64,000 bases of DNA from Barthelona sp. PCE (Eukaryota): positions 558,001 through 622,000 of the forward strand of contig JAUFOR010000004.1 in NCBI GenBank assembly GCA_040285745.1, given 5' to 3'. A program made the translations under genes and the position numbers. Below, piece by piece: positions 1 through 12,124 of the stretch. Position 1 is the stretch's first letter; each line of letters begins with the position of its first letter. The notes below the pieces were generated by a model. It did no database searches and was not told the DNA's origin. It saw only the letters and a list, made by a program, of their open reading frames with translations.

Positions 1-228
1 GACGAACTCAACGTCGACCACGTGCCTGACAACTGGGTTGACGAGAATCGCGTGAAGCAATTCCTCACTAAGACGCTGGGAGTCGGTAGCTCCGGCATCA
101 TGGTCGAGTTTGACCCCACCGCCACCAAGAAGGCGTTCAACCATTCCACGAGAGCCCCCAAGCGCACGCACCGTCCTAAGACGCAAAAGAAGAAACAAGC
201 GTTTAGCGCCAAAGAGGAGGAGAAGTGA
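1..228 (+). CDS. ORF1 (gag-like) C-terminal fragment of the retroelement, open from window start
   Basis: Frame +1 is open from base 1 (DELNVDHVPDNW...) to TGA 226-228, ending in a basic tail. Gag identity is inferred from position only. Confidence 0.6.
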   Translation, partial: DELNVDHVPDNWVDENRVKQFLTKTLGVGSSGIMVEFDPTATKKAFNHSTRAPKRTHRPKTQKKKQAFSAKEEEK

Positions 229-1689
229 AATCGTTCGTCTCCCCCCGCGCGTGATAGTAAATATCTATCCGACAAGGGTGTGGGAGACGCAAATGATCCC
301 AATGCGGTCACAGCGCTCGCGGACAGGGTCGGCGAGCTCTCCATCGAGAACGTCAAATTGAAGAAGGAGATCAAGAGCCTCAAGAAGGAAATCCCTAAGA
401 AGCAGCTCAAAGCCGCGAAGATGGAACTTCGCGCAGCTACCAAACTCGTGGAGCTCGAAGACAAAAGACTAGAAGCCATCAAAGCTCGGGAAAGGAGCAC
501 ACAGAAAACAAAAGCACCTGAGGACGTTAAACGGGAGAAGCCCCGTAAGGAGAAAGCACCAACAGCTACTAGCGTGCAGAAGATGATCTCCAAAGAGATC
601 AACAAACTCAAACACGAGGTTGTAGATGAGCGGAATAACGTCCAAATCTCAAGAAATCCGAAGGAGGTAGTCGGCACAGACACCATGCAGTGGCCGGCCG
701 CGGCGCCACCAGTAGCTCTGCTGAAGCACCTCCCACCCGACATCTTCCAGAAGGGCGGCCCAAGTCAACGAGTACTCAAAGAGGTGGTCCTAGGGGTTAC
801 CGGAACATGGGATATCCTCGGAACAGACCAGATGAAGATCAATTCAGCCGACACGCCCACGGAACAGTTCGTGAGGGACGCCGCGCGCGTCGCTGGCCTC
901 AGCTGCGAAGAAATTGAGAAGACAGTCCGACTGCTCGTGACTGAGGGCGTAACGCGCGACATGGTCGTTATCGAAGGAAAGAAGCCTCGCAGGCAGGAGC
1001 CAGTACGTCACTGGTACAAAGACGACGCCGTCGAATTGAACCTGGCCGTAACCGCGCTCAAAAGTAAGGACCTGATCAAAGAGGTCCCCATCGAAGAGAT
1101 CGAGGACGAACGAAGGGCATTCATTTCCATCGGCGCGGTCCCGAAGAATGCAGAACCGGACTCAAACAACATGTTCGCTCCGACGCAGAAGTTCGAATTT
1201 GACGTCACATCGCCGGACAACGAGCACAGGGTTATCGTCGACTGTACTAACACGAACTCTATGTTCGCCAACATTCCAATGGAACTCATCAAAACCCACT
1301 CTCTCGAGATTGTCATGGGTGGCAATCTCATGTATTCCGTCGACGCAAAGGATGGTTTCACGCTCATTCCACTGGACGAAGAGCTACAAAAACTGTTCTC
1401 ATTTACACACGAAGGTAAGCTTTATCAATGCACTAGAATGCCGTTCGGAGTTTCATTCGGCCCGGCCATCTTCGCCCGCATGATGAACCTGGCAACGACC
1501 GCAATGCGTGCGTTGGGATTCAACATCTGGAGCTACGTCGACGACGCTTTCGGATGGGAACGATCCCTCAGCAAAGCGAGGAACTCGATGATGCTGTTCA
1601 TAATCATCGCGTCGAAACTTGGCATCAAGCTAAACTACAAAAGTCCGTCAGTCCTTCGTACAAATTGGACATCATCGGCTACACGCTGA
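229..1689 (+). CDS. Retroelement pol, N-terminal part: coiled coil plus reverse transcriptase
   Basis: Motifs AVPK, RVIVD, SVDAKDGF, MPFGVSFGP and YVDD (1534-1545). The frame is open from 229 with first ATG only at 421. The true protein continues in the -1 frame at about 1640. Confidence 0.92.
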   Translation, partial: NRSSPPARDSKYLSDKGVGDANDPNAVTALADRVGELSIENVKLKKEIKSLKKEIPKKQLKAAKMELRAATKLVELEDKRLEAIKARERSTQKTKAPEDVKREKPRKEKAPTATSVQKMISKEINKLKHEVVDERNNVQISRNPKEVVGTDTMQWPAAAPPVALLKHLPPDIFQKGGPSQRVLKEVVLGVTGTWDILGTDQMKINSADTPTEQFVRDAARVAGLSCEEIEKTVRLLVTEGVTRDMVVIEGKKPRRQEPVRHWYKDDAVELNLAVTALKSKDLIKEVPIEEIEDERRAFISIGAVPKNAEPDSNNMFAPTQKFEFDVTSPDNEHRVIVDCTNTNSMFANIPMELIKTHSLEIVMGGNLMYSVDAKDGFTLIPLDEELQKLFSFTHEGKLYQCTRMPFGVSFGPAIFARMMNLATTAMRALGFNIWSYVDDAFGWERSLSKARNSMMLFIIIASKLGIKLNYKSPSVLRTNWTSSATR

Positions 1690-4394
1690 GCACCGACGAC
1701 CAGTCTGACGGCGGCCGGCTAGTCTCAACAATTAGACCGTCGGACAAGAACATCAGAAAGATCAGAGAGATGGCTCGCGTAATGCGAAATAGAATCGACA
1801 CAGCAGAACAAATCCCTGTCAGGGACATCATGAAGCTCGATGGCAAACTTGTATCATTTGCCAACGCCTCGACGATTCTTCAGCGGGTTCACCTACAGCT
1901 ACAAGCAGTACTGAAGGATCTCGACGCCCAATACGATAACGCGATATTTGACTCGAGCAGGAACAAGGGCCTACGCCTTCTCCTACCTCTTCCACTAGCC
2001 GACGCACTCACGAGGATCGTTGAATGTAACTTTGAACCGAAGACGCTGAGCTGCGGTAGAGCTAAGGTAACATTACTGAGCGACGCCATGAAGGACCAGA
2101 AACATATAGGCATTGGAGCGAAGGCATACCCAGACGACGACCAAGAGCTCTCGTTTGAACTTCTCCACAGGATGGGAGTGAACGAGCAAGGAGCAAGAAG
2201 GATGTTGACACTTCTCGACGATCTGCCAGAACAGGAAAGAGTAGACATCGAGCAGAACACTGTCGCAACAATCGCGGAGCAGGAGATGGTACCGATCGTC
2301 GAGCTACTCAAGACTAAGGGCAGACAGCTGAGGAACACCGAAGTCGTCTGGTATTGCGACAACACGAACGTATGCGCCGCTGTCGCGAAGGGCTACAGCA
2401 AAAACAAGGTCCTCAACAAGGGGGCCCGCATAGTGATGGAGCTGTGCGAAATGTGGGACGTGATCGTCACACCAATCTACATCAACTCAGAACAGAATTA
2501 TCTTCCAGACAGCATCTCAAGAGGAGCATCGTCGGAGTCGTGGACCAACTCTACGACATTCGTGCACGAGATTCTCCCAGCTAGGGTAATCGAGTTCAAG
2601 ACATCCGTCGTCGCAAGCCTCTACGAACCTGGACACATCCCAGCACTGTACGTCCGCGGTTTCCAGCCCACAAAAGGAAAGTCCAGGAGATCAACGAAAG
2701 CCGCACATGTGACAAGACAATGTCTCGGACAAGACCTCATCTCTCTAGGCGAGTATGACCTCAAACGGAATGCGCTCAAGGTCGACAATGTGGCGAATGG
2801 GACTGCACACTGTACAGGTAAGCTCAAAATCGTCGAAGGATTCGATGACACAAGATACACCGTCCCTCTATCGAATATGGCGATCATCACGAGAGACAAC
2901 GAAAGAATCGAGGCAACAGTTCCGACTTACTCCGCAGCCACAAGCTTAGAGATAGTCATTCTCAAAGTGTGCAGAACCGGCGCGGAAGTAGATGTGATCC
3001 TCCCCGGACCACTCCCGTCTTGCCCATTGTGGGCTACAATCGCACAAAAGACCATCCCATTAAGTGACGGATCCATAAAGATAAGAGTTACGAGAGAAAA
3101 GGTTCTCGGCGGCGAATCCGAGGACTACAAGCCCGCTGGAGCACGCACTCAGAACCCGGTACAGGTACGGGGCAAATCACTATCTCTGGCAGATCTGTTC
3201 GCCATCCCACCGTCAATGGACTACGACGAAGTGCTCGAACTCTTTCTGAAAAAAGGAGCGCACCAACCAACGAGGAACATGCTACATCGCTTCGGGAACT
3301 TCGTTCAAAAGGTGCACGGCACAGAAATAGTGGACGTCGCATGCCCAGGAAACGAAAAGAGACTTGAAGAGCTAATAATCGAGTTCAGATTCAGACTCGA
3401 ACAGGAAACAAAATCGAAGAGGCGTGCGAACGGCGACACCACCGAAGTATGGAGGTACACCTCAGATACGATTAACAGTTACATTTTCCACCTGCGTAAA
3501 GGACTGCTGGTTCTGAAAATGTTCATCACCGACAAGAAATCTCTCCTCACGACCGAAGAACTCGAGCAACTCGTCCAGCTTAGGGCGGCAGTAATCAGAT
3601 GCACACTGAGCGAGAGCTCAGAAACACAGAAATTCGCCATCAGCACGTCAGCAATCAGATTCCTGGCGGCAAGAGAGATTGAAGAGCTTAAAGCACTGGT
3701 CCAGGAAGGTACCACGAAGAAGAAGGCCCTTCAGAAGCTAAACAAAGTAAGAAGAAGAATTGCTATGATGTCATCAATGTACAACTTAGGATGCAGAGCG
3801 GCGTCTCTTGCCGCAGTCAAGACCCACCAAATTGAAGTCTCAAAATCCGGCGATGTCACGGTAACGCTGGACAAAGTGAAGAACCAACAGGGTCGACCAA
3901 CCAGCTACATGATCCCCAGAAACGTATGGGAGCTGGGCACACTGCACGACTATTTAAACGACGCTGTGCAAAGAGCAAAAGAAGGAGGTAAAGAGTTTAT
4001 TTTCTCGAACGGCGGAGAAGCCCAGAGCGTCTCGAATGCATTAAACACCATGTTCCGAGATTACAACGAGAAAATCAAGCAATCTGACCACAAGAATGCA
4101 AGCAAATTCAGAGTATTCAAAATGACAGCTCATGGCCTTAGAGCCGGCAGGGCAAAAGAGATAGCACAACATCCAGATGCGACTGTACGAGTATCAGCGC
4201 AAGGAATGGGTCTCTGGAAGGATGTGAAGGCGATGAACCTTGACTATCTCACGAAACCACTATTGACGTTTGAGGAACGAGAGGTGTTGAGTCCGATGGA
4301 ATTGGAAGGATGGGTTTTAGGCCACTTCCCGGACGAAACACCCTCTACACGTGAAGGCGAGCCTTCCCACGTGAGCGTTCCCCGACGTCAATAA
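1640..4394 (+). CDS. Retroelement pol, C-terminal part: RT thumb, RNase H, degenerate methyltransferase-like region, tyrosine recombinase
   Basis: KSVSPSYKLDIIGY (RT end); RNase H LLSDA, AEQE, YCDN, NYLPDSISR; YR catalytic set GCR (~3789-3797), KVK, HGLR (4131-4142), GLW, DY (~4242-4247). Confidence 0.92.
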
Positions 4395-4410
4395 ACCTAC
4401 TTCAGTATAA
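4313..4410 (+). repeat. Direct repeat B1 (98 bp), overlapping the end of the YR ORF
   Basis: Identical to 4546-4643 (ggttttaggccac...cttcagtataa). Confidence 0.97.
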
Positions 4411-4545
4411 GGTGACATACAGGCGCTAGCCTTCAGACTTTATACTTGAGGTAGTAAACAGCGGAGGGGGACGAAGCGAACCGTCATGTGTAGTAGGTGT
4501 CCGTAGGACCCGATACGGTTTTTCTTACCTTTTTCAAAAAAAAAA

Positions 4546-4643
4546 GGTTTTAGGCCACTTCCCGGACGAAACACCCTCTACACGTGAAGGCGAGCCTTCC
4601 CACGTGAGCGTTCCCCGACGTCAATAAACCTACTTCAGTATAA
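4546..4643 (+). repeat. Direct repeat B2 (98 bp), 3' terminus of the element
   Basis: Identical to 4313-4410, preceded by an A10 tract and followed by AT-rich host DNA. Confidence 0.97.
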
Positions 4644-5145
4644 TTATTTGAAACAAAAAATTGTTTCAATATATGCGTTAAATAATTAATTTTAAATCCT
4701 ATTTAACCACAAATTTAGTCATATAACAAAAACATTTTTCAAATAACTTTTTTATCAACGTGTAATTACTATTTATGGACTAAAGTTAGTATGTATGGAT
4801 AAAAAGTCTTTATATCCCTGTAATCAAATTTTGTGTGTGTGATTGAAAATACTACAATATTTTATTGCAACTCAAATATTTCCTATCTTAATTTTTAACA
4901 ACGTCTTATATCAATTTTGATTAAACATTTTGATTTAAAACTAATTTTAAAGGCCAATAAGACTTTATAATAAATAAAATGAATCAATATTTAAATTTAA
5001 ATTTTACTTCCTATCATTAAAGAAAAAAAGTTTTTGTTCACAGTAGTAAGATAACCAAAAAATGGCACTGATCAGGACGATCCTGTAATTGATTTTGAAC
5101 AGAGAATGGAATAGAACGTATGCGGGTGTATTTCAATTTCTCACG

Positions 5146-5332
5146 TTTCCTATTTATTTTATTTGTACTATTTAGTAATTGAAATACTACTATTTTTCAG
5201 ATGTATGGATTTCCAAACTCTGAAGAAGGTACCCGTTTGCGGCACCATATCCGAACGTCAGTGATGAGACTAGGAAAAGAAAATCATCCTTATAAACAAT
5301 AGGAGAAAATGTGTATTCCTATATCTCTGTAG
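5146..5332. repeat. Duplicated non-coding module, copy 1
   Basis: Colinear blocks tttcctatttatttt..tgtactat..attgaaatacta..ttcagatgtatggaYttccaaact, gatgagact..gaaaatcat and tctctgta are shared with 7806-7980. Confidence 0.8.
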
Positions 5333-5341
5333 TCATGGAAA

Positions 5342-7474
5342 CTATTCATTATGATAATGCTCATGATAATCTGGCATGTGATACTCAAAGATGGACGCCT
5401 CTGCCAGGAAGGATGGAAGGTGGAACCTTTCCACTGTGGGATTCATCGATTCCGGGTCTTCCTCAACGTTATATGTTTTCAACACCATTGTCTTGGTCTC
5501 TTCTTCGTATGACATGTCTTGAATAACGTTGTTAGGCAGATTTGGATCGTGGCTTATCTTCATATCAGGAGAATATTGTAAATTGTTGTTTGTGTAAAAA
5601 CGCGTCTTAATTGCACATGCTTCAATGTATGCTTTAATGATACCACCCCTCACGTGTATGTATGAATCTCCCACGAAATCATTGAAATAGTTGCCTTCCT
5701 CAATTTTTTCATTCATACTATTCTGATAAAGGTGAACAGGCTCTAAGAAGCTTCCTGTTGACCAATCTAAACAGTGTAAATGTTGCGTTGTTGCAACCCT
5801 ACTGTGTGTACATACAACAAACAGCTGATGATCAGGTGTTTCAGCTAATGGACTAGGGTTGAAGTAAACATCATATAAATATTCATGTTCAAAAACAATG
5901 TGCTTTTGAACCTCCACGTCATACCCGTTGACATTAAGCTGAAAAAAATGGATTGCTTCTTCACATAAAATGCACGCTGAATTATCAAAATGTGAACCAT
6001 AAACACTTCGAATATAATTATTCGGGGGAAGCTCTAAAATCACCTTTTCTCCCAAATATATCAGTTCTGTATCTTCACGATAGTCAACATTTAAGGGCAA
6101 CCCTTGAATAAAACCGCGGTTTTTAGAACCGCAATGAGGTAAAATGGTTGTGATTGGCTTAAATTCTGAGCCGGTCCAGCATAATTTGACATATGTATTT
6201 GTTTCACTATGTTTCTCTGCCATTACAAAAAAATCATCTCCTTCATTTGGATGAACTGATAAGATCTGGCACCACACACGTGAAAACGGTTTCCTGCACC
6301 CACGCAGCACAATAAGCTTCCTTTCTTTGAAAAAAAAGTAACATCTTATTGAAGCGATATGACCATACACTTCCTCTATCCCATCAAAAAAAATGCGTTT
6401 TGGTTGAAGACTGTTCAAACGCAAAACCTCCTTACTAACCTCTCTAAATTTGATTGGGCCATAACGTCCTGTTCTTCTATCTTCACCAAATAAAACACTA
6501 CATTTACGAAAGGAACTATCATTCAAGTCTATGTGTTTCAAACTATGGCAGAGTACATTCTTAAAATTCATTTCAACCTCTGATATCTTCAATTCGCCGT
6601 TTTCGATATGAATTACCACACAACTTGATCCAAATCCAATAAGTAACATTAACAAAACATCTTGAGTAAGCGTTAATAATGCAAAATTTGAGTACATGTA
6701 AATATTCAATCCTTTAAGCTGCGGAAACCTTTCTGTCAAGTTAACTTGGTTCCTTTGACTGTCAAATATTACCAATTCATCAACTTTATAATTGTCAAAG
6801 CTAACAGAGCAAATGCAATCCGAGTTTAAACAGCTGATGTATGATAAATGAACACCACCATGTAACTGCTCAATATCAGGTTCATGTGCCTCGTCCATGT
6901 CATCAACAGAAAAATTGTAATGCCATATGAAATTATCTTGGCAATACCTCAACAAAATGTAGTTTGGAGTTCTCACCGAAATTGAGTAATATTCTCCAAG
7001 ACATCTATAATCATAGGTTATAACATTTAATATGTAGCATTGTATCAACTGCCTGTTATCAACGGTTTCTTTAATGGCGAATAATAGGTGGTTTTCATCC
7101 AACGGAACTATTCCGCTTGATAGACTCTTAATCATCGGAAACGGAAAGGGTACTATTCTTCTTGTATGTTCTTCATTCATGACATCATTAAATAATAAGA
7201 TATCAAAATGGGTTATAATACCACTGTCATCAAAAAGCTGTTCGATGATCATGTAAGATTCTCCAGCTTTTAATTTGGATGTGTATTGAAGAGGCTTACG
7301 CGTATCCTCCACATATCCAATAAAGTCCTTGCCTTCAATGGCGCTTTCAATGAGGCTGATTTCGGTGATTTCTCTTGACTTAAGCAATACTACGCCCTCT
7401 CCCTCAAATATCATCTGCCCATCAGGATAAGCCTGCATGACAAGGTCTTCCTCGAATTTACGAACCCTAGGCAT
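5342..7474 (-). CDS. Hypothetical lineage-specific protein (~710 aa, possibly beta-propeller rich)
   Basis: Long uninterrupted ORF, probable start MPRVRKF at 7474; C-terminus similar to 10059-11783. Confidence 0.75.
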   Translation of the reverse strand: MPRVRKFEEDLVMQAYPDGQMIFEGEGVVLLKSREITEISLIESAIEGKDFIGYVEDTRKPLQYTSKLKAGESYMIIEQLFDDSGIITHFDILLFNDVMNEEHTRRIVPFPFPMIKSLSSGIVPLDENHLLFAIKETVDNRQLIQCYILNVITYDYRCLGEYYSISVRTPNYILLRYCQDNFIWHYNFSVDDMDEAHEPDIEQLHGGVHLSYISCLNSDCICSVSFDNYKVDELVIFDSQRNQVNLTERFPQLKGLNIYMYSNFALLTLTQDVLLMLLIGFGSSCVVIHIENGELKISEVEMNFKNVLCHSLKHIDLNDSSFRKCSVLFGEDRRTGRYGPIKFREVSKEVLRLNSLQPKRIFFDGIEEVYGHIASIRCYFFFKERKLIVLRGCRKPFSRVWCQILSVHPNEGDDFFVMAEKHSETNTYVKLCWTGSEFKPITTILPHCGSKNRGFIQGLPLNVDYREDTELIYLGEKVILELPPNNYIRSVYGSHFDNSACILCEEAIHFFQLNVNGYDVEVQKHIVFEHEYLYDVYFNPSPLAETPDHQLFVVCTHSRVATTQHLHCLDWSTGSFLEPVHLYQNSMNEKIEEGNYFNDFVGDSYIHVRGGIIKAYIEACAIKTRFYTNNNLQYSPDMKISHDPNLPNNVIQDMSYEEETKTMVLKTYNVEEDPESMNPTVERFHLPSFLAEASIFEYHMPDYHEHYHNE

Positions 7475-7805
7475 GAATAGCCGTGATGAAGTAGGTGAAT
7501 ATTGAGATAGCTTGAATTTCTTAAATATTAGTGCTTGCACGTGGCATATACAAATGATATAATGCACCTGAAGCGTAAAAAGAAAGCGAGAATGTGAAAC
7601 AAAACTGCATTTGCATTTCTATCCCCTCACAGTTTTATTGATGTGGTTCGCAGGGCTCACGGCGCGTGAAACGTAAGATTGTTGGCACGTGAGGGCATTG
7701 GCTTGATTGTGGGGCACTTTTTTGCTGCGTTGTGGGTACGGATTGCAGATAATATATTTGAGTGTTTTGCAAATGAACTACAACCCAAATTTTATTCTTT
7801 TATGA

Positions 7806-7980
7806 TTTCCTATTTATTTTTTGTACTATCAATATTGAAATACTATAAACTTTCAGATGTATGGACTTCCAAACTTAATTCTCTGTAAAGAGTCTGTTTA
7901 CTCTCCCTTACCCCCCGTTTACATGGATGGATGAGACTCTGGAAGAAAATCATGCATCACAGCTTCTTATTCTCTGTAAT
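7806..7980. repeat. Duplicated non-coding module, copy 2
   Basis: Colinear similarity to 5146-5332. Confidence 0.8.
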
Positions 7981-8084
7981 AATTGTTTCTATTTACACAA
8001 ATATAATATTCGTACTTATTCTCTGTAAACTATCCACTAGCACATACGAGTCAGAAAAACTCTCAGAAAATCATTTTAAAAAAA

Positions 8085-9944
8085 TCAATACAAAAGAAGT
8101 AATAAACAAAAAAACACAAATAACATAAGAAAAAAGTAAATTACCTTATTATGTTTCTCCATAGATCCACATCCACAGCATTCTATTTTCTTATATGTAT
8201 TTATAATGTGTTGCATATTACTTTCATCAAAATTAGGATCATAAACAGTTGTATAACCATGAATATTGATTATATTGGTTCTTCCCAATTCAATATGATA
8301 AACACCTGCACGTTGTGCAATCTGCTTAAAAACAATCCAACTGCGAAACGGACGTATCTCAATATAATCAATATTTACCTTGATTTGTTTTCTTTCTTTA
8401 AATCCACGATCAGTGATTATCGCATGAACAATGTCATCACTTTTTAAATCAACTCCAAGATATTCATTGTTCACGTACAAATTCTTAATTCGATGTCTTT
8501 CTCTTTCAGTATACAATTGAATACCACTTGTGTCATATACATAGATATACGACATACCTTCTAACGCCAGGCATAGCAGAAAATACTTCCCATGACCATC
8601 CATTATCAATTGGCGATCTTTATAACCAATAGAAGGTAAATCATTGGTAACATCAAACTTAAAACAATGTGTGTATGACAAAACTCTATTTTTGGTCTTA
8701 AATGAATAAAACATACCTGATGTGCCGCTATACTCGCATATAACGGCACCTTCACTATTTCCACTAATTATGTAATCAAAATCATCATTGAAACGCAATT
8801 CAGTACAAAATCTCTCTCTATCAAGTTCAATACACAACATTTCGGATTCAACGACCAACAGAGAAACGTGATAGTCGTTTTCACTGTCAAAACAAATGCG
8901 CTGCTTAACATCAATTTCGCTCATACTTACTTCCACTTCTTTTTTGGGTTGTTCTGGTATTTCTTCCTGTTTGAGAGTCTTATGCACTTCATTCTTGACA
9001 GCAACATTTTGTTTTGAAATTGTATGCGATTCATGTTCAAAATAAACAGGAATATTATCGACTGTATGGAATACAGGAGCAGATGGAGCAGATATATCAA
9101 TCACAGGAAGTATTTCACAATCTTCAGTATTCGCAGGAGCAGTTATACCACCAGGTTTGGCAGTCATATTCATGGATTTTTGAATTGTGTTGTCAATCTC
9201 AATATTCGAAGTACTCATTGTATATAGTTGAATACTTGGAAATGAAAGAGAAATAAACACATTTTCATTGCGATCAATGACATTACACGCGTCAAATGTG
9301 AAGCTGTTGTTAACAGTTATAGATACGTCAAGCGAAGCAACAATATAAGGCAGCAAAGCCTGCTCTTCCGATTCCAAGTTGAATAATCCCACAACGGAAT
9401 CGTTTAAATGCAACTGTTTGGTTGCGATCACCCAGTTCTGTGGACACATGATAAAACTTGTAATTGGAAAGGGGAGTTTGTGCTCGGTTTCGTCTACAAG
9501 TAAGCCATTTTTAAGGATCATGTACGTCATCAAAACGCTTTGATTGGTCGTAATGGCGCCCATAGCTCTGTCAAAAACACTGATATGAGTGTGCACCTCC
9601 GGAACAACGACTTGATTCAGTATCTGAATCCCATCATCATCGTGCTTGAATGTACGATAATGTGTCTCGCACACACCATCCCCGCTATTGCTGCTGACAA
9701 CTCCAAGCGCACCGTAAATGCTGCAGCACGCCATAAAGGCTTTCCCAAAAGGCAAAGCATCGCTGATCAAAGAAGAGATCTCAGGGTCGAGTTGGGCATG
9801 GGTAAATAGTCCGGTATTCTTCGAGAATGATGTTATTTTCCAAGTGCGATCGTCACATTGGGACAGCCAAAATTCACTGTCTACAAATGAACATTTTGGA
9901 ACGTTATTGTATGATTTTTGTGGGTTTATATGTGTTAAGAGCAT
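8085..9944 (-). CDS. Hypothetical protein with C-terminal hydrophobic tail anchor
   Basis: ~620-aa ORF ending VIYFFLMLFVFFCLLLLLY. Confidence 0.7.
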   Translation of the reverse strand: MLLTHINPQKSYNNVPKCSFVDSEFWLSQCDDRTWKITSFSKNTGLFTHAQLDPEISSLISDALPFGKAFMACCSIYGALGVVSSNSGDGVCETHYRTFKHDDDGIQILNQVVVPEVHTHISVFDRAMGAITTNQSVLMTYMILKNGLLVDETEHKLPFPITSFIMCPQNWVIATKQLHLNDSVVGLFNLESEEQALLPYIVASLDVSITVNNSFTFDACNVIDRNENVFISLSFPSIQLYTMSTSNIEIDNTIQKSMNMTAKPGGITAPANTEDCEILPVIDISAPSAPVFHTVDNIPVYFEHESHTISKQNVAVKNEVHKTLKQEEIPEQPKKEVEVSMSEIDVKQRICFDSENDYHVSLLVVESEMLCIELDRERFCTELRFNDDFDYIISGNSEGAVICEYSGTSGMFYSFKTKNRVLSYTHCFKFDVTNDLPSIGYKDRQLIMDGHGKYFLLCLALEGMSYIYVYDTSGIQLYTERERHRIKNLYVNNEYLGVDLKSDDIVHAIITDRGFKERKQIKVNIDYIEIRPFRSWIVFKQIAQRAGVYHIELGRTNIINIHGYTTVYDPNFDESNMQHIINTYKKIECCGCGSMEKHNKVIYFFLMLFVFFCLLLLLY

Positions 9945-10058
9945 TTTCACTCATATAACAGAAGAATGAAAAAAAGGAGAATATTGAACGAATTTAAATT
10001 GTCAATCAAAACTTTATTTATTCATTGCAAGACACAGAACGGTTATAACAATATCAAC

Positions 10059-11783
10059 TTAGGATATCCTCGAAATAGTAAGATGTCCAGAGATATCAGT
10101 AGCATGGTAATGAAATGTTTGCATATTAGGTATGTATTGAGGCAAAAACAGTTTTTTTTCATTCAAGTTCAGACCGTTATAGCCATCCATTGATTTAATT
10201 ACTAAAGTTTTGCTTTGAGCATCAAAGGTAACAGTTTGTGTTTCTTCATCTTCAAAATCTACACCAACAATGCATGTGGACAAACAGGATCCATCGTGTG
10301 AGAGTTCAATAAATGGGTGTGGGCCTGAACATTGTGCGTTATTTGTTCCAAAGAGGCGAGAAATAGTTGTACTCATCTCATACCTATGTAATTGTTCATT
10401 TTTAGTGAAAAAAACATTACTAACGGTATCAACAAGCGCAAATAAAACCTCTTCTTCATAATATGGTGCAACAAAAGATCTTTTAAATTGGGAATTATTT
10501 TCAAGCTCAAAGATTTCTTTGTTAATAATTTGGAAATAATTTTCACTTTTTTCATTTATCTTCACTTTGACAATATCAACAAAGTGGTAATTATCTGAGA
10601 AGCAAACAATTGTGTATTCGTCATTGTTCCTTGTGCATTTTGTTGCAAATATATTATCAACCATCAAAAAATGGTTTTTAACCAGTAATTCACATCCAAA
10701 CAAATATACATGCCAGTTCCCTTGGTGCCCATTCCTTACAAACATTGGTAGTAAATCATTTTCATCATGCAAATAGTTCCATATATTATTTAAATCGGTT
10801 AAGGTGTTGTTGAACCACATAAAAACATTGGAATAATATCTTAGAAAAAACACAGGCTCACCCGAAGGAAGGATTACGAAATTTGAGACAGATAATCTAC
10901 CAATTGAGTAAAATGAAAAAAACCATATTTTTTCATGCTTTATGCTCCAAAAAGCATCATTGTCTGATTGATGAGACGGTTTAAATCGCAACAATCCATT
11001 TTGATAGACCATAATATTATCCATTTGATGTCTGTACAATAGCATTTCTCCTATAAATCTGAAACTCAACAAAAAGCAAATTGTATTCTTGAATCCATAA
11101 AATTCATGGTCAACACAGCTGAACACGCTTTGAAGGCCAACTTTTACCATTTCAAACGGGAGAATTGTTGAGATGTGGTCTACATAGTACATTTGTCTTA
11201 ATCCATCTTTGCTGATAACCATATGGTGTTCAGTAAGCCATGCAACGGTGTATGAATCCATGGACCACTCCAAAACAATGATGCCCTTGCTATCTATATA
11301 CATCTCCTCCTTGAGATGAACATAATCAACTCCATCAAAAAAAATGCATGTATCGCTTGAAGTGAACATCACCCAGTTGGTGTTGAAGCATGGAATTACT
11401 AATACGGGGAAGCTGACGAACATAATAGGTTCTAGTCCTTGTTGATGAGAATACTGATGTATGGTTGAATCTTTTTTAGATTGCATAATAATTGGGCAAG
11501 TACCACCAGTAAATATTTTGTTCATGATCGTATATCCTTCCAATTCGCACATTTCGCCTGTAGTGGTGTTCATAACCGTTGCATATCCTGCAGTACGATT
11601 GAAAATTACACTATGGTCATTGTTTAGGGTGAAAACAGTGTCTGCATCATCAGGAAACTCATGGGGATCCTCAGGTTCGCGATAAAAACCGTATTTCTCC
11701 AGCAATTCTTCCACAAAATCAAAGCGTTCGTTTGGCTCAAAAAAGGAATCATTTTCACTTTGTAATTTGCGATAAATAGGCAT
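10059..11783 (-). CDS. Hypothetical lineage-specific protein, paralog of 5342-7474
   Basis: 574-aa ORF; C-terminal QTVTFDAQSKTLVIK...LFLPQYI..FHYH resembles QDMSYEEETKTMVLK...FHLPSFL..FEYH. Confidence 0.75.
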   Translation of the reverse strand: MPIYRKLQSENDSFFEPNERFDFVEELLEKYGFYREPEDPHEFPDDADTVFTLNNDHSVIFNRTAGYATVMNTTTGEMCELEGYTIMNKIFTGGTCPIIMQSKKDSTIHQYSHQQGLEPIMFVSFPVLVIPCFNTNWVMFTSSDTCIFFDGVDYVHLKEEMYIDSKGIIVLEWSMDSYTVAWLTEHHMVISKDGLRQMYYVDHISTILPFEMVKVGLQSVFSCVDHEFYGFKNTICFLLSFRFIGEMLLYRHQMDNIMVYQNGLLRFKPSHQSDNDAFWSIKHEKIWFFSFYSIGRLSVSNFVILPSGEPVFFLRYYSNVFMWFNNTLTDLNNIWNYLHDENDLLPMFVRNGHQGNWHVYLFGCELLVKNHFLMVDNIFATKCTRNNDEYTIVCFSDNYHFVDIVKVKINEKSENYFQIINKEIFELENNSQFKRSFVAPYYEEEVLFALVDTVSNVFFTKNEQLHRYEMSTTISRLFGTNNAQCSGPHPFIELSHDGSCLSTCIVGVDFEDEETQTVTFDAQSKTLVIKSMDGYNGLNLNEKKLFLPQYIPNMQTFHYHATDISGHLTISRIS

Positions 11784-12124
11784 AATTTTGCTGGACAGTG
11801 TGCAAGTATCTGTAGTGTGTGCTTGAGATCTTTAAAAATGGTCATCTGGTTGCAATCTGTATCAATGATGGTGATAATATTGTTTAAACACAGCCTTGAT
11901 TCAAAATTACACTTTCTTGGCATGGAAGTTATAAAACTCGAATGTTTTCATAAATAAGAAGCCCCGAAATGATGAGAAATTGAAATGCACCTGCATGTTT
12001 CCTATTCTTTTGCTCTTTTGCAATCATTACTTATTACCCTTACCATACACATCTGAACACTGCTGTGGACCGATTAATCATGCTCCAAAGCTTCCCTATC
12101 ATCTCTTTTGAAGTCAAATATTTC

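Follow-up and report, generated by a model that had tools for sequence, protein, structure and literature searches.

Predicted RNA pairing between the A and B repeats of a split-direct-repeat tyrosine-recombinase retrotransposon and its possible role at the RNA ends

The terminal repeats A and B of a split-direct-repeat tyrosine-recombinase (YR) retrotransposon are, according to our computations, complementary to each other on the RNA strand, and this complementarity is conserved. The best reading of the predicted structures, to which we assign a probability of about one half, is that the fold lets the transcript skip the 3′-end signal of the repeat copy B1 and afterwards closes the RNA ends into a DIRS1-like panhandle. 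The problem which can thereby be named is the presence of two identical 3′-end signals 230–520 nt apart. In the literature examined no report of A:B pairing in split-repeat elements was found, although the founding papers may mention it. Such pairing is apparently undescribed, while the layout itself is already known from Ngaro and PAT.

The element, its copies and its coding region

The window, i.e., the whole stretch of 64,000 nt that was analyzed (G000:C4:558001-622000), carries the 3′ end of this element. The full element comprises 6,083 bp in the layout A1-gag-pol/YR-B1-A2-B2, and its 5′ end is located at G000:C4:556561, 1.44 kb upstream of the window. A preliminary description of the window had proposed split direct repeats, and this was borne out by the 5′ end, which opens with the sequence of 4411-4544. 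Therefore, the spacer between both B copies is A2. B1 and B2 are identical at 98 of 98 positions with a period of 233, as described. Since B2 carries one extra leading G in three of the five full copies, B is probably 99 nt long. The features are summarized in Table 1.

Table 1. Positions of the features in the window
Feature	Position	Strand	Remark
gag-like ORF, 3′ part	1..228	+	~525 aa, start upstream of the window; TGA at 226-228
pol ORF	229..4394	+	in frame behind the gag stop; RT, RNase H, ~200-aa domain, tyrosine recombinase
Predicted stem-loop after the gag stop	233..299	+	encloses the poly(A)-type hexamer AGTAAA at 256-261
B1	4313..4410 (start probably 4312)	+	pairing strands 4329-4354 (III), 4376-4388 (II), 4397-4410 (I)
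Hairpin of B, alternative to helix III	4348..4373	+	
AATAAA in B1	4390..4395	+	putative poly(A) signal to be skipped; overlaps the pol stop 4392-4394
A2	4411..4545	+	identical to A1 of the 5′ end; pairing strands 4440-4454 (I), 4461-4473 (II), 4484-4508 (III)
AGTAAA in A2	4453-4458	+	
T5/A10 hairpin in A2	4528-4547	+	
B2	4546..4643	+	
Partial solo A-B unit of sister family F4	5068..5256 (G000:C4:563068-563256)	+	

Searching the genome, a eukaryotic one of 10.2 Mb in 8 contigs, gave 37 matches for the family of this element (F1), namely five full 3′ ends, five A1 copies, 17 complete solo A-B units and ten fragments. Aligned to one another, the five full copies show differences at 54 columns, and within A and B an A/G homopolymer run is their sole difference. 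The same variable run at the A|B junction of solos was considered as a sign of independent retrotransposition, which was rejected because the full copies vary likewise. Target-site duplications are absent, as the flanks of the five full copies and of 15 solos differ on both sides. One copy interrupts an F2 repeat with no bases gained or lost, and the insertions have blunt ends without a shared core sequence. The solo units are most simply explained as products of A1 x A2 recombination, since an F4 unit interrupts one F1 solo, whose halves lie on different contigs (C1 and C8). Three DNA runs over 3700-4560 yielded three short contigs with zero differing letters, with A not covered.

Several single loci deserve mention. 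In L006/L023, A plus 12 nt of B directly precedes a whole A-B unit, and in L014 the end of B bears a 9-nt duplication. In the F3 solo L148, T replaces A at either end, perhaps as a 1-bp duplication. Furthermore, families are lodged inside or beside one another's terminal repeats (L039, L017, L015, L016, L021/L034), and some of these nested repeats have chimeric flanks pointing to ectopic recombination. On the minus strand, 5342-11831 of the window holds three long host ORFs (589–757 aa) with no Pfam match.

The gag-like ORF, which is listed in the ORF table of the five copies, has no Pfam match and is labelled by its position. The final 27 codons of pol, including its stop, lie within B1. Comparison of the copies revealed that a single-nucleotide indel, located in a run of A near 1638 and possibly due to misassembly, splits the pol of the window copy. 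The RT, which is Ty3-like, was recognized by Pfam (RVT_1, E 9.6e-13), and its best library matches are mostly RT/RH proteins of the DIRS type. RNase H was recognized by its motifs. For the tyrosine recombinase, the match to Phage_integrase (E 0.0014) falls short of the cut-off of Pfam, and HxxR with a downstream Tyr was found in all five families. A single pol-YR frame is present in F1, where it is open in three of five copies, as well as in F3-F5. Between RNase H and YR, a domain of ~200 aa (window 2523-3107) is conserved in all five families. It has no family or fold match (model pLDDT 51, fold matches none above Z 5.3) and displays a faint likeness to the end of the DIRS methylases (hhalign E 0.077 over 31 columns).

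The gag ORF of each of the five families closes with TGA, pol continues without a frame change, and a predicted stem-loop with WGTAAA is found 2–8 nt later (window 226-299; L083:7150, L080:1912, L084:7473, L085:7437). Judged from the sequence, this arrangement suggests readthrough of the stop together with a short gag mRNA formed by alternative polyadenylation. Two metagenome contigs with an RT, one of them also with a YR, have an upstream ORF and pol in frame with a single stop between them (L044:110-3803, L045:336-2768).

Complementarity of the A and B repeats

The rod of A and B is predicted to contain 45 Watson-Crick and four G·U pairs. Its three complementary blocks lie where the preliminary description had placed them, i.e., 4440 with 4397/4630, 4466 with 4376/4609, and 4484 onward. 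Folding of 4313-4643 as RNA gave a z-score of -5.01, and none of 100 shuffles was as good, which supports pairing of the sense-strand RNA; the reverse complement gave -1.40. For the A:B duplex, one of 1000 shuffles was as good on the sense strand (z -4.25) vs. 53 of 1000 on the antisense strand (z -1.77). B-A and A-B each fold as a rod (z -3.7 and -3.8). When the element was scanned in 27 windows of 233 nt, sense-strand values of z -4 were reached by these two alone; a single gag window gave z -3.1 and a single antisense window z -3.6. Furthermore, A binds B better than each of 56 B-sized pieces of the F1 element body. Using DNA parameters, the z-scores range from -2.2 to -0.9. The spacer had been described as an imperfect inverted copy of B. 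This holds as RNA pairing, whereas as a strict inverted copy in DNA it is borderline, since 100 of 2000 shuffles score equally well when A is aligned to the reverse complement of B. A and B are therefore a case of pairing and not a recognizable inverted duplication.

The hairpin described within B is present, yet in competition with helix III. Three solos (L011, L013, L030) carry an inverted loop of this hairpin, and in two of these the stem has also been perfected, which is the mark of a strand-to-strand template switch.

An older F1 subfamily, ~82% identical and known from solos only, retains the rod. Here, helices I and II are almost unchanged, and helix III has been rewritten on both strands, with one A-U replaced by G-C, two gained and two lost pairs, and an 8-bp helix in a new register. 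Its member L030 folds with z -4.86, and its antisense strand is likewise strong (-3.66). In L032, the most decayed copy, the rod is lost. The covariation among copies that had been put forward as a check gave a weak formal signal. Among nine F1 copies, one of 50 pairs shows a two-sided change, which is reached by 435 of 500 shuffles, while three other measures of covariation are reached by 25 of 500 shuffles. Since B1 is partly coding, its conservation is confounded.

When the RT/RH protein was searched against this genome, relatives were revealed which are 25–44% identical in this region and form four further families, F2-F5. They are laid out as A1-body-B1-A2-(spacer of 10–270 nt)-B2, and solo units occur in each of all five families. 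In a binding matrix of sense strands, the own B is the best partner of A in F1, old F1, F3, F4, and F5, but not in F2 (z -0.1); in the antisense matrix this holds for old F1 and F3 alone. Body pieces binding A as well as the own B does were counted as 0 of 56 in F1, 19 of 51 in F2, 1 of 46 in F3, 3 of 42 in F4, and 0 of 42 in F5 on the sense strand. The same test on the antisense strand gave 3, 8, 0, 17, and 33 such pieces, respectively. The repeats of F4 and F5 are homologous (A 61/109, 56% identical; B 79/130, 61%), and their cross pairs are at background (-7.8 and -5.4 vs. -15.5 and -12.9 for the own pairs). Folds of whole units gave z -3.0 for F4, -0.9 for F5, -4.1 for F3 (antisense -4.3), and -0.6 for B-A of F2. 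RNAalifold on F4 and F5 together recovered the rod only partly, because the registers shift. The topology of the ends varies as well, with A1 pairing with B1 in F4 and F2. A flush 3′ end was dropped as a conserved feature, because the core helix lies 16–63 nt inside the DNA end in F2, F4, and F5. In summary, F1 shows strong and F3-F5 moderate predicted pairing, while for F2 pairing is unproven.

Beyond this genome, no DNA context for the F1 family was found among viral and metagenome contigs. In a broader scan none of 37 loci (35 metagenome, two viral) had complete split repeats, and the eight metagenome or viral loci with ORFs that were scanned include four Ty3/Gypsy elements and one YR element.

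Putative poly(A) signals and the proposed fate of the RNA ends

The sister families and a poly(A) hexamer enclosed by the rod go beyond what had been described for this stretch before. For the host, the 47 nt after the stop were analyzed for 197 ORF ends from an independent 400 kb (L179-L218). AGTAAA, TGTAAA, and AATAAA are the top three hexamers, and a T-rich zone comes after them. WGTAAA is present at 47 of the 197 ends vs. 10.1 in shuffles (maximum 19), and AATAAA at 33 vs. 11.4. An earlier set of 117 ORF ends points in the same direction. Hexamers in antisense are also frequent at the 197 ends (WGTAAA 37, AATAAA 35), probably owing to convergent genes. From these counts we infer that WGTAAA and AATAAA act as poly(A) signals of the host, which seems to use both, often overlapping the stop codon. 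In the available part of PMC11529991, the related WGURAA is reported to occur only in Giardia out of the species compared there. A short motif common to all five B repeats, defined after the fact, resembles it.

Each of the five B repeats holds exactly one host-type hexamer (shuffle rates 0.03–0.19), in F1 AATAAA 15 nt from the end and in F2-F5 WGTAAA 26–59 nt from the end. Within 28,674 nt of element bodies, six hexamers are present in sense vs. 25 in antisense, and five of the six lie directly behind the gag stop. In F4 and F5 the ORF continues past the B1 hexamer into A2, thus cleavage there would truncate it. A second AGTAAA is located in A at the end of the core helix (L080 A nt 39-44; for the window see Table 1), and in F1 it faces the AATAAA of B across the same internal loop.

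The predicted fold of the whole 3′ end does not follow the simple either-or switch that had been suggested for the spacer, since A2 is split between B1 and B2 simultaneously. B1-A2-B2 prefers a mixed form in which A2 30-68 pairs with the 3′ half of B1 and A2 75-119 with the 5′ half of B2 (-114.7 kcal/mol vs. about -99 for either simple rod). Once the 5′ end is offered in a cofold, the B2 tail pairs with A1 30-63, so that A2:B1, A2:B2, and A1:B2 are obtained together. In F1, the cleavage zone, i.e., the 15 nt behind the hexamer, has a predicted unpaired probability of 0.07 in B1 vs. 0.60–0.64 in B2. The hexamer itself is the wrong way round, being predicted open in B1 (0.93–0.95) and less so in B2 (0.35–0.73), and masking in F1 is limited to the cleavage zone. 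With 80 nt of A2 behind B1, the hexamers of F2-F5 are predicted to be paired in their first half (unpaired probability 0.00–0.05), which is more open in B alone (0.24–0.74). At equilibrium, B2 is no more open than B1 in F2-F4. Only F5 among F2-F5 keeps the asymmetry of the hexamer at whole-end equilibrium, and the choice of partner varies by family. In F3-F5 the B1 hexamer is already paired without the A2 30-80 region. The predicted masking is clear only in two of the five families.

Since B1 and B2 are identical and each has a host-type poly(A) signal, context would be needed to skip the first and use the second. We propose that during transcription A2 nt 30-68 would fold back on the 3′ half of B1. 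The cleavage zone of B1 would be locked in a 14-bp helix with A2, and transcription would run on for this reason. The 3′ part of A2 would pair with the 5′ part of B2, and the 3′ half of B2 would be left open, to be cleaved near the element end and polyadenylated. For this part of the proposal, that A2 masks the B1 cleavage zone during RNA synthesis so that the transcript ends in B2, we see a little less than an even chance. The free B2 tail would then pair with A1 nt 30-63 and close the 6-kb RNA into a panhandle, keeping both ends in proximity, a role ascribed to the inverted repeats of DIRS1. During reverse transcription, the B1|A2 junction would serve to restore the end sequences left unpaired, which is the least certain step. 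That pairing of the B2 tail with A1 holds the ends for priming or strand transfer, with the unpaired ends rebuilt from this junction, is a tentative suggestion. Masking and end closure are mutually compatible, and a role in the copying cycle, as envisaged in the preliminary description, stays a live option.

The same helix could also be used for snap-back self-priming, which we consider unlikely. Here, the last base of B2 would pair flush with A nt 30 and the RT would extend the 3′-OH on the 29-nt overhang of A, so that the rod makes the primer. In F1, helix I ends exactly at the final base of B, and the available part of a study on DIRS-1, whose primer is unknown, mentions a 3′ hairpin as a suggestion (PMC7192593). 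However, as the hexamer of B lies 15 nt before its end, an unpaired tail would be expected on the RNA, the core helix is set 16–63 nt inside the DNA end in F2, F4, and F5, and self-priming, stepped through, yields an A-body-B unit, which is seen in none of five copies.

Still somewhat less probable is a signal at the DNA level, where the blocks would be inverted recombinase sites or would fold single-stranded cDNA into a substrate for recombination. The cDNA of DIRS-1 is described as single-stranded and mostly linear in the accessible part of the same source (PMC7192593), old F1 and F3 fold on both strands, and the insertions are blunt and lack a common core. Nevertheless, the z-scores fall to only -2.2 to -0.9 under DNA parameters, on the antisense strand of F4 and F5 the binding does not exceed background (17/42 and 33/42), and the distance from helix to crossover ranges from 0 to ~60 nt between families.

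It is improbable that A and B are a relic of an old inversion, by which DIRS1-type inverted repeats became split direct repeats, and that their pairing has no role now. The weak formal covariation and the lack of significant binding in F2 would fit to this, and intermediate forms have been expected but not observed, as far as the accessible part of the source goes (PMC4157794). On the contrary, families 25–43% identical in RT each retain their own pairing, the F4/F5 cross pairs fail, and RNA pairing is strong where strict inverted similarity is borderline.

Very improbable is a 233-nt A-B unit acting as a viroid- or retrozyme-like circular RNA or mobile mini-element, with the rod serving its own replication: 17 complete solos face five full copies, the circular fold is the same closed rod, an A-body-B product of B1 x B2 recombination is not seen and one locus has a tandem A-B(12 nt)-A-B (L006/L023), but Rfam gave no match except one chance hit (E 7.4), short-repeat recombination is evident from the F1 solo split between C1 and C8, and solos occur in all five families, in Cafeteria Ngaro and as SIRE in T. 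cruzi, according to the available parts of the sources (PMC8547959, PMC6681497). A hammerhead (GGACGAAAC half-motif plus GUC triplet) was rejected, since the core CTGANGA is absent from both strands of 4151-4700. The 233-nt circular RNA proposed earlier found no support, as a ribozyme was not found and recombination accounts for solo A-B units, which are known already.

That sense A:B pairing represents an overlooked general design rule of split-direct-repeat YR retrotransposons, combining B1/B2 discrimination for 3′-end formation with DIRS1-like closure of the RNA ends, is possible but doubtful. If true, split direct repeats and the inverted repeats of DIRS1 would serve one and the same replication cycle, and the ratio of gag to genome RNA in this lineage would be determined by the further poly(A) signal that is wrapped in structure behind the gag stop. 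For the priming and end rebuilding of split-repeat elements, no tests were found in the literature examined. How YR retrotransposons carry out both steps becomes testable here, as a single small genome offers one specific helix, one specific signal and five natural variants.

Comparison with known systems

The element is placed in the DIRS order, and the placement stops above the choice between Ngaro and PAT. Split direct repeats and solo AB units have been described for Ngaro, PAT, and VIPER in the available parts of several studies (PMC8547959, PMC6681497, PMC4157794, PMC9210276, PMC3783388, PMC3266345). The junction copy B1|A2 is direct, as in these elements, and an inverted internal complementary region is absent. 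Therefore, the hybrid of DIRS1 and PAT architectures proposed for this end was not supported.

The Ngaro elements of Cafeteria burkhardae have the same ~6 kb, the order A1-[ORFs]-B1A2B2, RT/RNase H/YR, and scattered solo AB repeats, as far as described in the accessible part of PMC8547959. Here, too, the internal repeats lie behind YR. Ngaro elements have YR in a separate ORF, whereas RT, RNase H, and YR here share a single ORF that follows the gag TGA in frame. In addition, part of B1 is coding, and A is predicted to pair with B, which is unmentioned in that part of the source (PMC8547959). In an RT/RH tree with long branches and no named references, four family proteins stand apart from the methylase-bearing rows. 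The PAT-like elements Pat1, Toc, and kangaroo share the split direct repeats but carry a methyltransferase domain, whereas the matching region here is the one without family or fold match.

VIPER, with the order gag-YR-RT, and SIRE belong to a kinetoplastid group, unlike the element described here. The arrangement A1/B1-A2-B2 is shared with VIPER of Trypanosoma cruzi, and SIRE corresponds to A2-B2, like the solos, in the available part of PMC6681497.

With DIRS1-like elements a likeness would exist at the RNA level. If A1 pairs with B2, both have paired ends and unpaired extensions needing an internal junction copy, judged from the accessible parts of the sources (PMC7192593, PMC3266345). In contrast to DIRS1-like elements as described there, the ends of this element carry no inverted terminal repeats in the DNA, the junction copy is direct and not complementary, and the insertion sites have no shared trinucleotide.

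Masking of a poly(A) signal in split-repeat elements was not found in the literature, where Goodwin and Poulter (2004), subscription reviews, and supplements may mention it. A precedent is the polyA hairpin of HIV-1, an RNA structure which represses the first of two identical poly(A) signals and which is, in the available part of the source, local and present at both ends (PMC2645353). In contrast, the predicted masking strand here is located in the neighboring repeat, so that only B1 has it downstream. The feature is real and belongs to an element of a known kind; its RNA pairing is apparently undescribed, and the purpose is testable.
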